Assembly (NCBI GenBank): GCA_040905465.1
Contig: JBBDRK010000037.1
Span: 8,180-20,929 of the forward strand
Reading direction: 5' to 3'
Length of the DNA stretch: 12,750 nucleotides
Origin: Trueperaceae bacterium
GTDB taxonomy: Bacteria > Deinococcota > Deinococci > Deinococcales > Trueperaceae
The notes below the pieces were generated by a model, which saw nothing but the letters and a program-made list of their open reading frames with translations, searched no databases and was not told the origin of the DNA. The first letter of the stretch is position 1. Each line of letters begins with the position of its first letter. Positions 1 through 3,956 of this stretch are shown here, piece after piece. The position numbers and the translations under genes are program-made.

Positions 1-95
1 CGATCATCACCAGGACCGTGCGCGGAGCGGTGCACGGGGTCACCGAGTGGCTGCTCGAGCAGCCGGGCGTGCGCCTGCTGGAACGCAACTACTGA
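1..95 (+). CDS. 3' end of an upstream CDS, truncated by the window edge; product not identified
   Basis: Frame from position 3 reads IITRTVRGAVHGVTEWLLEQPGVRLLERNY* (TGA 93-95) with almost all codons ending in G/C, as in the real genes of this window. Too short to assign a family. Confidence 0.65.
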   Translation, partial: IITRTVRGAVHGVTEWLLEQPGVRLLERNY

Positions 96-135
96 TGAAG
101 CCACCGGCGCCGCACCGCCCAGCGGGGGCAGGCTC

Positions 136-1149
136 GTGAGCTGGTACGTGTACCTGCTCGAATGCGCCGACGGCACGCTCTATACCGGCATCACCCGGGA
201 CCCGGCGGAGCGCGAGGCCGCGCACAACCGCGGCGTAGGGGCGGCCTACACCAGGGCGCGCCTGCCGGTCAGGCTGGCTTTCGTGGAACCGGCCGCGCAC
301 AGGCCGGCGGCGTTGCGCCGCGAGCTGCAGTTGAAGGCCTGGCCACGCCGGCGCAAGCTGGAGTTGCTTGCCACCCGGGAGTGCGTGCGCCGAGACGCGC
401 CGCTCTTGAGCACGGCCGGGTTCGCCGCCCCGCACGGCTTTTCCAGTCGGGACGGCGGCGTCAGCGACGGTTCTTACCGGAGTCTCAACCTGGGAGCGAA
501 CACGGCAGACCGGCCCGAGCGAGTCGAGCGAAACCGGGAGATTTTCGCCGACTGGTTCGGCGTGGATTCGAAGCGCGTGAGCCTGCTCGACCAGGTTCAC
601 GGCGAACGGGTCGTGCCGGCCGGCGCGGACGGTTCGCCGGCGGCGGACGCGCAGATAAGCGACGATCCCTCGCTGCTTCTGGCCATCGGCAGCGCCGACT
701 GCCTGCCGCTGCTGTTCCACGACCGGAGGACCGGAGCGGTGGGCGCCGCGCATTGCGGTTGGCGCGGTACGGCGTCGGGTCTGGCCGCCAAGACGGTTTC
801 GGCGATGCAGGAGGAGTTCGGGAGCCGGGCGCGCGACATCGTGGTGGCCATCGGTCCGGGCATCTGCCGCACGTGCTACCAGGTGGGGCCGGAGGTGGTC
901 GAGCGGTTTCTGGCGGCGGGCCTGCCGGCCCGGCTGGCCACGCCCGACGGCGAACGTTGGCTCCTCGACTTGGCGGCAGCCAATGTGCACGTGCTGGAGC
1001 GAGCCGGCGTGTCCCGGCGATCGATCCTCCTCCAGTCGCAGGCGTGCACCTCGTGCGATCCGGACCGATTCTTTTCGCACCGCCGCGATAGCGGCGTGAC
1101 CGGGCGCCATTGGGGGGCCGTTCGGGCGACCCGGCCGATGGACGGCTAA
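136..1149 (+). CDS. pgeF: Fusion protein: N-terminal GIY-YIG nuclease (UPF0213/YazA/YhbQ-like) + C-terminal PgeF/YfiH (LACC1/FAMIN-like purine nucleoside phosphorylase / peptidoglycan editing factor) domain
   Basis: aa 1-80: WYVYLLECADGTLYTGIT..R..HN.G.GA.YTR.R.P...E..LK.W.R..K, the small GIY-YIG pattern. aa ~88-337: HGFSSRDGGVS..SLNLG, LDQVHG, ADCLPLL, AAHCGWRG, AIGPGIC..CYQVG, CT.C..FFSHRR..G.TGR, the YfiH pattern with its His-Cys-His triad. No stop between the domains. Confidence 0.9.
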   Translation: MSWYVYLLECADGTLYTGITRDPAEREAAHNRGVGAAYTRARLPVRLAFVEPAAHRPAALRRELQLKAWPRRRKLELLATRECVRRDAPLLSTAGFAAPHGFSSRDGGVSDGSYRSLNLGANTADRPERVERNREIFADWFGVDSKRVSLLDQVHGERVVPAGADGSPAADAQISDDPSLLLAIGSADCLPLLFHDRRTGAVGAAHCGWRGTASGLAAKTVSAMQEEFGSRARDIVVAIGPGICRTCYQVGPEVVERFLAAGLPARLATPDGERWLLDLAAANVHVLERAGVSRRSILLQSQACTSCDPDRFFSHRRDSGVTGRHWGAVRATRPMDG

Positions 1150-1167: not shown

Positions 1168-1860
1168 ATGCAGAGGCTTCTCGAGATAATGCGGCAGTTG
1201 CGGGCTCCCGATGGATGCCCGTGGGACCGCAAGCAGACTCACCTGACGCTGCGCCGTTACCTGCTGGAGGAAGCGGCCGAGGCGGTGGATGCCATCGCAG
1301 CGGGCGAGCCGGGGGAGATGGCGGACGAACTGGGGGACGTGCTGCTGCAGGTGGCCTTTCACGCGGTGATCGCCGAAGAAGCGGGGACGTTCCGCTACGA
1401 GGACATAGAGGAGGCGATAGTTTCCAAGCTGATCCGTCGCCACCCGCACATCTTCGAAGACGTCAGCGTGTCCGGTGCCGACGAGGTGCTCAGCAACTGG
1501 CAGGCGATCAAGGCCGCCGAGCGAGGCGGCCGCGAAGGCCGGCACACCTCGCCCGCGGCCGCCGTTCCTCGTGGCCTGCCGGCACTGATGCGGGCGGCCG
1601 AGGTCGGCAAGGCGGCGAACTGGCCGGCTCCCGACTTCAGCACGCCGCCCATTGGGGAGCCGGGCGACGGGAGTGCCTGGCTGGCCGCGACCGAAGAGGG
1701 GATAGGCGAACACCTGTTGGCTGTGGCGCAGTACGCCCGAGCGCACGGAGTCGACCCGGAACTGGCGTTGCGGGCTGCTGTCGATGCGGCCGTAGCTGCT
1801 GAGGTGGCGGGGGCCGCGGAGGACGCGACAGACGGTTCCGAAGACGTTCCAGAGGAGTGA
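1168..1860 (+). CDS. mazG: MazG family nucleoside triphosphate pyrophosphohydrolase
   Basis: LRAPDGCPWDRKQT..L..YLLEEA.E..DAI, DELGDVLLQV.FH, KLIRRHPHIF, W..IK..E motifs; second degenerate domain ending G.DPELALR; AAGGA upstream of the ATG. Confidence 0.93.
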   Translation: MQRLLEIMRQLRAPDGCPWDRKQTHLTLRRYLLEEAAEAVDAIAAGEPGEMADELGDVLLQVAFHAVIAEEAGTFRYEDIEEAIVSKLIRRHPHIFEDVSVSGADEVLSNWQAIKAAERGGREGRHTSPAAAVPRGLPALMRAAEVGKAANWPAPDFSTPPIGEPGDGSAWLAATEEGIGEHLLAVAQYARAHGVDPELALRAAVDAAVAAEVAGAAEDATDGSEDVPEE

Positions 1861-2450
1861 GCGAAACCGATCGGCGACTGGAAATGCTGCGGGAAACGCT
1901 GGCCTCGCGGGAGCGAGGGGGTATCGCCATACCCGGTTTCCGTCCGGCGGCGGTTCTGGTTCCGATACTGCGCGGGCCCGACGGGCTCGAGCTGCTCTTC
2001 ACCGTCCGCGGGGAGCAACTGACCCACCATGCCGGCCAGATCGCCTTTCCCGGCGGCCGGCTCGACCCCGGCGAAAGCGTCGAGCAGGCGGCGCTTCGCG
2101 AGACGTTCGAAGAGATCGGACTGGACGTGCCTCCCGCGGCCATTCTCGGCTGGCTCGACGACCATCCCTCACCGGCGCGCTTCATCGCCACCCCGGTGGT
2201 GGCGGAGCTCGACTGGCCGCAGCCGCTGGTACCGAACCCGGTGGAGGTTTCCGAGGTGTTCTCGGTGCCGCTGGCCGAGCTGCGCGCCATCGTTCCCCGG
2301 TGGGAGGAACGCGTGTTGCACGACTTCCGCCGCCGGATCCACTTCTACGCCTGGGGCGAGCGGCTCATCTGGGGCTTCACCGGCAATATCGTCAAGGAGT
2401 TGCTCGAGTTGCTCCCGGAAACCGGCGAGAATTCCGTGCCCCACTCGTGA
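1857..2450 (+). CDS. Nudix hydrolase, CoA pyrophosphatase (NudL/Pcd1) subfamily
   Basis: AAVLVP, LLFTVR..L..HAGQIAFPGG (UPF0035/NuCoA motif), Nudix box GRLDPGESVEQAALRETFEEIGL, NP.EV..VF.VPL, IWGFTG. GTGA overlap with the mazG stop, with GAGGA just upstream. Confidence 0.92.
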   Translation: MSETDRRLEMLRETLASRERGGIAIPGFRPAAVLVPILRGPDGLELLFTVRGEQLTHHAGQIAFPGGRLDPGESVEQAALRETFEEIGLDVPPAAILGWLDDHPSPARFIATPVVAELDWPQPLVPNPVEVSEVFSVPLAELRAIVPRWEERVLHDFRRRIHFYAWGERLIWGFTGNIVKELLELLPETGENSVPHS

Positions 2451-2492
2451 TAGCCTCGACTGGATGAACAGCCGATGCGTGGGGGCAGGGAC

Positions 2493-3956
2493 GTGAAACG
2501 ACACGACGTACGTGTGAGCCGCGGAGCAGAGCGCTACGCCTTCTCCGCGGGCGACGTGGTGGAGGCGTTGCAGGGCGCCGGCGTGCTCACCGACGACGCC
2601 ATCCGGATCGCTCGCGACGTCGAGAAGCACCTGCGCTCGCGCGACGTGCGTGACGTCGAGCTCGACGAGCTGATGGGCCGGCTGGAGCAGGTGGTACGCG
2701 ACCGGGTGTCGCCCGAGGCCGCTCAGCGTTTTCGCACGCAGACGCCGCCGTTCGTATCGATGAAGGTGACCAAGGGCAGCGAGTCGGAAACGTTTTCGCG
2801 CCGCACGCTCAGCCACTCGCTGGAGAAGTATGGACTGTCGTTCAAGGAGGCGTACGCGCTGGCCAAGCAGGTCGAACAGAGCCTGCGGTCGCAGGGATTC
2901 CAGTCGGTCGAGGAAGACATGCTGGCCCATATGGTGGCGCTGGCGCTGGAGGGACGCTATGGGCGCGAGGCGCGCCTGAAGTACGAAGCGACGCTCACCG
3001 ACCCGGTCGACCTGTACGTGCTCGAGGCGGACGGCACCAGGCTGCCGTACTCGCGCGGGATCCTGGCCCGGGCCCTGATGTCGGTTGGCTTGGGGCCGGA
3101 GCTGGCCTACAACCTCGCCAAACGCATCGAGGACGTGCTGTGGCGCTCGGGCGAGCGTAACGTGACCCGAGCGCGGGTGCGGCGCGAGGTCGACCGGCTG
3201 CTGATAGACGAAGCGGGGGTCGACTTCGCGCGCCGCTATCAGCTTCTTCACCGGTTGAGACAATCGGAGCGGCCGGTGATCGTGTTGATCGGCGGAGCAC
3301 CGGGGGTAGGGAAGAGCACTATCGCCTCGGAGTTGGGGTACCGCCTGGGAATTCCCCGGATGGTCTCGACCGACGCCGTTCGTCAGGCGCTGCGGTCGCT
3401 CATCTCGCCGGAACTGAGCCCGCTCTTGCACGAGTCCAGCTACACCGCCTGGCGGGCGGAGTTGCTGCCGCCCGAACGCATCGACGCGCGGCCGGAGCCG
3501 GTGCGCGTTATCAGGGGATTTCGCGCCCAGATCCAGCAGCTCGCCACGGCCATCACCGCCATCATCGAACGCAACCTGCACGAGAACATGGCGTTGGTGA
3601 TGGAAGGGATTCATCTGGTGCCGGGTTTGTCGCCGCGCGAGCACTTCGAGGGCGCATTGGTGGTGGAGCTGATGCTGATGGTGGAAGACGAGGCGAGCCA
3701 CCGCGACCACTTCGGCCTGCGCGAGCGGCAGACGCACGACCTGCGGGACCAGGACATCTATCTTGAGCACTTCCGGGAGATCCGTATCCTCCAGGAGTAT
3801 CTGCTGGACCGCGCTCGAGCCGAGCGGGTGCCGATCGTCGACGCCAGCGACTTCGATCACGCCGTCGACAAGGCGATGGAACATGTGCTGGCTTCGTTGC
3901 TCGTGCGCGGCCTGGTCGACGGCAGCGACCTGGCCAGCGGCGGCGAGCGCGCCTGA
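2493..3956 (+). CDS. 2-phosphoglycerate kinase-like P-loop kinase with three tandem N-terminal ATP-cone-like domains
   Basis: PVIVLIGGAPGVGKSTIASELGYRLGI..STD.VRQ.LR, LH.SSY.AW, EGIHLVPG, Y...F.EIR..QEYL...A match the 2PGK family. Three similar ~75-aa N-terminal units. The start is either ATG 2475 or, more likely, GTG 2493, which has a G-rich SD-like tract before it. Confidence 0.8.
   Translation: MKRHDVRVSRGAERYAFSAGDVVEALQGAGVLTDDAIRIARDVEKHLRSRDVRDVELDELMGRLEQVVRDRVSPEAAQRFRTQTPPFVSMKVTKGSESETFSRRTLSHSLEKYGLSFKEAYALAKQVEQSLRSQGFQSVEEDMLAHMVALALEGRYGREARLKYEATLTDPVDLYVLEADGTRLPYSRGILARALMSVGLGPELAYNLAKRIEDVLWRSGERNVTRARVRREVDRLLIDEAGVDFARRYQLLHRLRQSERPVIVLIGGAPGVGKSTIASELGYRLGIPRMVSTDAVRQALRSLISPELSPLLHESSYTAWRAELLPPERIDARPEPVRVIRGFRAQIQQLATAITAIIERNLHENMALVMEGIHLVPGLSPREHFEGALVVELMLMVEDEASHRDHFGLRERQTHDLRDQDIYLEHFREIRILQEYLLDRARAERVPIVDASDFDHAVDKAMEHVLASLLVRGLVDGSDLASGGERA

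Follow-up and report, generated by a model that had tools for sequence, protein, structure and literature searches.

Among the enzymes of cell-wall synthesis, bacterial PgeF is by now characterised and has a proofreading role. The accessible text of PMC12280929 (2025) describes it as a cytoplasmic amidase that cleaves L-Ser or Gly, but not L-Ala, off UDP-MurNAc precursors, a reaction requiring H71, C107, H124, D89 and D106 in the E. coli protein. The same text reports that its purine nucleoside phosphorylase activity is weak (>500-fold more protein is needed), independent of the triad and with no physiological role detected in E. coli, and that pgeF is missing in species whose stem peptides carry Ser or Gly at position 1. 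The structural basis of PgeF activity is the subject of PMC8844914, going by its accessible part. In a stretch of 12,750 nucleotides (nt) from a Trueperaceae bacterium (assembly GCA_040905465.1, contig JBBDRK010000037.1, positions 8,180 to 20,929; the whole stretch is called the window here), a domain of this kind is the C-terminal part of a protein of 337 amino acids (aa), encoded at 136..1149, whose N-terminus is a GIY-YIG domain of the UPF0213 type.

UPF0213 GIY-YIG proteins (YhbQ, YazA) are widespread and structures of them have been solved. In the GIY-YIG homing endonucleases the catalytic domain is followed by a DNA-binding domain, and these enzymes are mobile, with a patchy insertion at varied sites. 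The Slx1 family is defined, in the accessible text of PMC7017083, by a GIY-YIG/URI domain and a C-terminal zinc finger. A literature search to which subscription journals were mostly closed found no biochemistry for UPF0213/YhbQ in the texts available, YhbQ being mentioned in passing or as a relative of Slx1. Within the same limits it found no paper dealing with GIY-YIG together with PgeF, and where GIY-YIG and YfiH were both mentioned this was done separately. The architecture is rare and, as the initial annotation of this DNA had suspected, apparently undescribed; it is present in databases without comment.

The C-terminal part of the fusion has its sequence, its fold (template modelling score, TM-score, ~0.8), the H-C-H triad and two Asp in common with E. 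coli YfiH (7w1g, 1z9t) and Geobacillus YlmD (6t0y), but the solved or characterised bacterial PgeF proteins are single-domain whereas the fusion adds an N-terminal GIY-YIG domain of 80 aa. This domain matches the solved UPF0213 proteins (1zg2, 1ywl) over its whole length, with a like fold and the same Y, Y, R, H, E pattern; those proteins are free-standing and ~95-107 aa long, while here the module is the N-terminus of a 337-aa enzyme. With Slx1 (6seh, 4xlg) the GIY-YIG/URI core is common over 71-82 columns at 20-28% identity, but the fusion has neither a Pfam zinc finger nor an Slx4-like partner and is not a member of that family. Nor does it resemble the homing endonucleases, since it carries no Pfam DNA-binding domain and its GIY-YIG gene keeps a fixed place in a gene block. 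We regard the fusion as a recent, genus-level merger of translationally coupled operon neighbours, in which the PgeF half would edit, the GIY-YIG half would keep its UPF0213 activity and both would be functional, and we give this reading a probability of roughly 0.7.

The fused frame, its active-site residues and its fold

The fused gene and its parts are, in positions of the window:

136..1149, + strand, fused gene, GIY-YIG (UPF0213 type) and PgeF, GTG start, 337 aa
136..375, + strand, GIY-YIG domain, aa 1-80 (Pfam PF01541; PDB UPF0213 entries 1zg2 and 1ywl)
376..432, + strand, short junction, aa 81-99, with ~7 linker residues followed by the N-terminal strand of PgeF (APLL) (alignments, stop/start comparison with the sister genus g2, model)
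433..1146, + strand, PgeF domain, aa 100-337 (Pfam PF02578, TIGR00726, PDB YfiH/YlmD sequence matches, Foldseek)
124..128, + strand, GGGGG, putative ribosome-binding site 7 nt 5′ of the GTG start (from the letters alone)

The initial annotation had read a complete GIY-YIG and a complete YfiH domain in one 337-aa frame, and profile searches bear this out. Pfam assigns aa 3-74 to GIY-YIG (45.5 bits, cut-off 22.6; E 9.6e-12) and aa 104-329 to Cu-oxidase_4, its model for YfiH/PgeF (PF02578; 246.5 bits, cut-off 22.9; E 3.2e-73), and its scan of the fusion found no other domain. The NCBIfam equivalog model of PgeF, TIGR00726, is matched above its cut-off (167.6 against 141.15 bits), while the score with NF007998, the model of E. 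coli type, is 136 against 369, which places the fusion outside the enterobacterial equivalog; no NCBIfam model matches the GIY-YIG domain. The start at GTG 136 agrees with the starts of homologues (V/M-SWYVYLL). In its own genome, which is 95% complete, PF02578 is matched once and PF01541 twice, the second time by UvrC, so the fusion is the sole PgeF and the sole UPF0213-type GIY-YIG protein there.

A word-indexed search of 5.8 billion clusters, in which 8000 candidates were scored and 1132 matched, returned both Pfam domains in 16 of the best 120 matches (identity 57-100%; sources lgn, jgi, ena and ncbi) and the PgeF domain alone in the remaining 104. The named clusters among the fused ones come from Trueperaceae and are labelled only 'PgeF' or 'YfiH family protein'. 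Across 128 family genomes of 36 genera, full-length uninterrupted matches occurred only in G000, G052 and G053, the three genomes (3/3) of one genus, here g1. A HMMER scan of 1.84 billion representatives gave 31,889 matches, and P0010, which represents the same g1 clade, is the only one of the 150 best (those of 151 bits or more) to span both domains; at 50% identity the fused proteins form a single cluster there. The architecture is therefore real and narrow, being found in one genus of the 36 in the family but not confined to one assembly. In two other genera, g23 and g27, some PgeF matches have apparent N-terminal extensions that reach back to query residues 22-40 with internal stops; a GIY-YIG remnant was considered there and rejected, as the domain hidden Markov model (HMM) finds none.

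That an assembly or gene-calling error joined two genes through a sequencing indel is hardly credible, although a scaffolding flaw lies close by. A gap of 100 N, flanked by an exact 55-nt duplicate, is located just 5′ of the window and ~135 nt before the start codon (G000:C37:8024-8234; window 1-55); the duplicate looks like an unmerged k-mer overlap, and it splits trmB. Against an artefact stand the same frame in 16 clusters from four sources and in all three g1 genomes, a linker that can be aligned among homologues, and a read-derived Logan contig of 665 nt from run X1, which spans 244-908 and runs through the junction without any difference or indel, also near 370-390 where the initial annotation had allowed for a stop or indel. 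Run X1 is probably the source sample, which makes the contig an independent assembly but not an independent sample. A second strain variant in the same run, covering 69-273, differs by 12 substitutions and by the loss of 3 nt at 101 in the intergenic part, and has no frameshift in the GIY-YIG domain. When the 55-nt overlap is collapsed, trmB stops at TGA 93-95, in another frame and 40 nt before the GTG; an open frame of 915 aa that would have made a trmB-GIY-PgeF triple fusion was accordingly rejected as an artefact of the gap and the duplicated overlap.

The motifs named in the initial annotation are all present and, Y4 apart, invariant in the 16 fused clusters. In the GIY-YIG domain this holds for Y6, Y16-T17-G18, R26, H30, N31, E63 and K67, and position 4 is Y, F or H. 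Y6, Y16, R26, H30 and E63 are also invariant in a 16-row alignment of fused and free forms, whereas N31 is not. In the GIY-YIG superfamily the catalytic residues are two Tyr, an Arg, a His and a Glu. In the PgeF domain H155 (QVHG), D171, D188, C189 (ADC) and H206 (AHCGW) are invariant in 16/16, and the D-17-D and C-17-H spacings are those of the E. coli numbering in the accessible text of PMC12280929, the mapping onto E. coli residues resting on spacing and motifs rather than on a direct alignment. Mean pairwise identity among the fused clusters is highest in the GIY-YIG domain (72.6%), lower in the PgeF domain (63.4%) and lowest in the junction (55.6%), and judged by such conservation the fusion is under selection. 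The GIY-YIG domain might instead be catalytically dead or re-purposed, serving PgeF only as an appendage for binding, targeting or oligomerisation, given that no UPF0213 activity is known and that the domain has no DNA-binding extension; we consider this very unlikely, as invariance of Y6, Y16, R26, H30, N31 and E63 in 16/16 is the pattern that would be expected of a working active site.

Sequence and fold agree on the identity of both halves. Of the solved UPF0213 proteins, 1zg2 (E 1.2e-13) and 1ywl (E 1.3e-10) are matched by the GIY-YIG domain, and 11 sequences of solved YfiH/YlmD proteins are matched by the PgeF part. An AlphaFold (AF2) model built on the alignment of the 16 fused clusters has a predicted local distance difference test score (pLDDT) of 86.8 and a whole-protein predicted TM-score (pTM) of 0.89; confidence is low at residues 108-114 alone, and the pLDDT at the junction is 88-93. 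Among the Foldseek matches listed for this model are 14 YfiH/YlmD chains at target-normalised TM-scores of 0.74-0.83; the YfiH structures matched include 7w1g, the complex with UDP-MurNAc-L-Ser, and the N-terminus aligns to 1zg2, 1ywl and Slx1. By profile, residues and fold the C-terminal part is PgeF, and cleavage of UDP-MurNAc-L-Ser/Gly is its predicted reaction. A complex prediction of the GIY-YIG domain against the PgeF domain scored 0.00, which gives no verdict and was used neither way.

A candidate internal start is found at V84, a position for which the three g1 genomes have GTG, GTG and TTG in one alignment column. It could yield free PgeF, but Val is commonly encoded by GTG and the Shine-Dalgarno-like motifs upstream are poor.

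Origin of the fusion and linkage of the two genes

The PgeF tree comprised 39 rows, namely the 30 best family loci and those with a GIY-YIG gene (duplicate loci of G123 and G089 omitted); it was made by a quick method and rooted at the midpoint. Genus g2 is the sister group of the fused clade here, with a value of 98 in the Shimodaira-Hasegawa-like approximate likelihood ratio test (SH-aLRT), and the GIY-YIG identities follow this tree. In g2 the genes are separate but touching, the GIY-YIG stop and the pgeF start sharing ATGA in G003 and TGATG in G005. Loss of a stop/start boundary of the g2 type leads to exactly the junction observed in g1, the C-terminal helix of GIY-YIG being followed by ~7 residues and the 'APLL' strand.

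We propose that one Trueperaceae genus had an ancestor in which a small UPF0213-type GIY-YIG gene stood directly upstream of pgeF, that both genes were translationally coupled via overlapping stop/start codons, and that the loss of this boundary would have left a single reading frame. The C-terminal domain would do the ordinary work of PgeF, as a cytoplasmic Cys-His-His amidase clearing misadded L-Ser or Gly from UDP-MurNAc precursors, and the N-terminal domain would retain whatever phosphodiester-cleaving activity stand-alone UPF0213 proteins have. The fusion would mainly fix 1:1 co-expression, and no mechanistic hand-over between the domains would be needed. The series of unlinked, adjacent, overlapping and fused genes within one family is a clean example of operon neighbours merging.

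GIY-YIG orthologues, defined by a threshold of E <= 1e-15 set by us, were found in 21 of the 128 family genomes and were missing from the other 107. Beyond the family, among the 364 genomes of the phylum, one orthologue was found, in G129 of a second family and not beside pgeF. PgeF matches were present in ~121/128 family genomes. The 21 genomes with a GIY-YIG orthologue show these arrangements:

Fused: G000, G052, G053 (3/21)
Abutting with stop/start overlap: G003, G005 (2/21)
GIY-YIG on the same strand 5′ of pgeF, gap ~400-590 nt: G025, G026, G121-G126 (8/21)
GIY-YIG ~720 nt 5′ of pgeF: G089, an unpublished genome (1/21)
GIY-YIG and pgeF unlinked: G022-G024, G030 (4/21)
No PF02578 in the genome, trmB-GIY-mazG retained: G001, G002, G020 (3/21), at completeness of 89%, 62% and 96%, respectively

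A DoxX-like open reading frame in the ~400-590 nt gap was verified for G025 and G121 only. In 17/21 of these family genomes the position of the GIY-YIG gene within the block is constant, either before pgeF or before mazG, and the free-standing orthologues in sister genera are 84-104 aa long. Five family genomes have no PF02578 match (G001, G002, G004, G020 and G100; completeness 62-100%). The cell-wall chemistry of these might differ, because pgeF is missing, according to the accessible text of PMC12280929, where position 1 of the stem peptide is Ser or Gly.

The survey outside the family covered 80 UPF0213 loci of many phyla with flanks of up to 4 kb, several of them shortened by contig ends, and one locus proved to be the Trueperaceae record itself. 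In the other 79, PgeF was found near the UPF0213 gene once, on the opposite strand. This sole non-Trueperaceae case is a Desulfosudaceae metagenome-assembled genome (L070 2088-3209), in which the two genes are convergent and ~130 nt apart.

The evidence thus mostly speaks for a local link of GIY-YIG and PgeF and against an obligate coupling, because most relatives have PgeF without GIY-YIG, three have GIY-YIG without PgeF, a single outside-family locus in 79 has PgeF nearby, and the GIY-YIG module is fused elsewhere to other partners. The Rosetta-stone hint that the initial annotation saw in the fusion is weakened by this, the linkage being limited to one family where the genes are neighbours by shared gene order and each occurs without the other. 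Since the link is local and not obligate, its worth as a functional clue is modest; the fusion is no ground for annotating either family with a shared pathway, nor proof that both enzymes cooperate, and as a domain architecture it is real and of modest interest.

Several observations nevertheless weigh against a merger of otherwise independent enzymes. The GIY-YIG gene lies on the same strand less than 1 kb upstream of pgeF in 14 genomes of 5 genera out of the 21 GIY-bearing genomes, and in g2 the two are translationally coupled. After fusion GIY-YIG is the more conserved half (72.6 vs 63.4%) and the linker is short and confident (pTM 0.89), which a fixed two-domain machine would also fit. Like PgeF with its substrate UDP-MurNAc, the MazG and NUDIX neighbours have nucleotide-linked compounds to act on, so that there may be a common theme of error removal, and the independent function of UPF0213 is itself deduced, the literature search having given no biochemical activity.

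These observations are what speaks for a functional partnership, in which GIY-YIG and PgeF would belong to one pathway or complex. The nuclease-type domain would then be the cleavage arm and PgeF the recognition or activating partner, with the proofreading of cell-wall precursors or nucleotide sanitation tied to the cleavage of a nucleic acid or a nucleotide-linked substrate. The same-strand linkage, the stop/start overlap in g2, the strong conservation of the GIY-YIG domain after fusion, the confident linker and the adjoining mazG and nudix genes would all suit it. So would the joining of the GIY-YIG module elsewhere to DNA-repair and sanitation enzymes (MGMT, a NUDIX domain), and the precedent of the structural relative Slx1, which is weak alone and stimulated 500-fold by Slx4 in the accessible text of PMC7017083. 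It is opposed by the restriction of the linkage to one family, whose shared gene order it follows, by the 107/128 family genomes with no GIY-YIG orthologue, by the three with GIY-YIG and no PgeF and the four with unlinked genes, and by the gene for a DoxX-like membrane protein that intervenes in two genera. Further points against it are the single convergent case among the 79 outside-family loci and the one fused representative in the best 150 matches of the HMMER scan. The idea of nucleic-acid cleavage coupled to nucleoside salvage, put forward in the initial annotation, has moreover lost its basis, since the physiological role of PgeF is that of a UDP-MurNAc-Ser/Gly amidase and the phosphorylase activity behind the salvage idea is, in the accessible text of PMC12280929, weak and non-physiological in bacteria. 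On balance we find a functional partnership rather unlikely and prefer the merger of operon neighbours. The natural fusion is in either case a ready construct for asking if the nuclease-like module needs a partner.

Other fusions of either partner

The initial annotation held UPF0213 proteins to be normally stand-alone, a view that is too sweeping for the GIY-YIG module. A search with aa 1-85 among proteins of 185-590 aa, with domain orders checked on examples, gave 90 matches: 11 of the GIY-PgeF clade, 73 clusters of GIY-YIG with DUF2461, 3 with GIY-YIG as the sole Pfam domain, and one cluster each of GIY+DUF1697, MGMT+GIY (O6-methylguanine methyltransferase) and GIY+NUDIX. In these other fusions the module is 55-69% identical to that of the g1 fusion.

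The DUF2461 (TIGR02453) fusions, which belong to Gemmatimonadales where named, are built like the g1 protein, with the same N-terminal GIY-YIG followed by one enzyme-sized domain; they are 262-360 aa long, mostly ~320-330. They differ in having DUF2461 as the partner, in belonging to another phylum and in being far commoner. Their GIY-YIG domains (P0123-P0198) show 57-69% identity to that of the fusion, compared with 46-63% for the free GIY-YIG proteins of other Trueperaceae genera, which suggests that the domain either is very strongly constrained or has been transferred horizontally.

PgeF has likewise been joined to another gene, contrary to the view of the initial annotation that YfiH/PgeF is stand-alone in bacteria. 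P0207, a single representative of 444 aa, is a fusion of DUF1684 and PgeF in which, as in g1, PgeF is joined at its N-terminus to an upstream neighbour from the Trueperaceae block, the partner being DUF1684 instead of GIY-YIG. Taken together with the g1 fusion, it means that PgeF merged with whichever gene stood upstream at least twice.

The diversity of partners invites a broader, and in our opinion improbable, proposal: UPF0213 GIY-YIG could be a partner-dependent cleavage unit comparable to Slx1 with Slx4, repeatedly joined to enzymes that recognise errors or damage (PgeF, MGMT, MutT-like NUDIX, DUF2461, DUF1697). If so, PgeF would be its physical partner and GIY-YIG would act on a nucleotide-linked substrate in the proofreading of cell-wall precursors or of the nucleotide pool. 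This would be a first clue to the function of UPF0213 proteins, and possibly the first case of a GIY-YIG fold with a non-DNA substrate.

Gene block and neighbouring genes

The fused gene is part of a same-strand block of trmB, GIY::pgeF, mazG, nudix and a gene for an ATP-cone/P-loop kinase, followed by an ATP-binding cassette (ABC) transporter. The neighbours within the window are:

1..95, + strand, 3′ end of trmB (tRNA m7G46 methyltransferase), frame 3, stop TGA 93-95 (Methyltransf_4 in the upstream frame; orthologues upstream of the fusion in G052 and G053)
1168..1860, + strand, MazG-type nucleoside triphosphate pyrophosphohydrolase (Pfam; TIGR00444 above cut-off; synteny)
1857..2450, + strand, NUDIX hydrolase, best match CoA pyrophosphatase, below cut-off (Pfam, NCBIfam, synteny)
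2475..3956, + strand, ATP-cone and P-loop kinase-like protein, like 2-phosphoglycerate kinase, below cut-off (Pfam, NCBIfam, synteny)

The trmB orthologue of G052 scores above the cut-off of TIGR00091. The block recurs throughout the family in the variants trmB-pgeF-nudix-ATPcone, trmB-DUF1684-pgeF-..., trmB-DUF1684-GIY-DoxX-pgeF-mazG-..., trmB-GIY-pgeF-mazG-... and trmB-GIY-mazG-.... MazG is found in 77/128 genomes and 28/36 genera, and on these counts a joint gain or loss of MazG and GIY-YIG was rejected. The small gene for a DoxX-like membrane protein lies between GIY-YIG and pgeF in genera g14 and g35 (L039 3309-3737; L041 3354-3740), and in g23 DUF1684 is a separate gene abutting pgeF (L008-L031).

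The N-terminal ~170 aa of the ATP-cone protein have no Pfam match, and the protein scores 546.8 against a cut-off of 603 with PRK12337 (2-phosphoglycerate kinase). It is 81-87% identical across the three g1 species, compared with 60-74% for its block neighbours.

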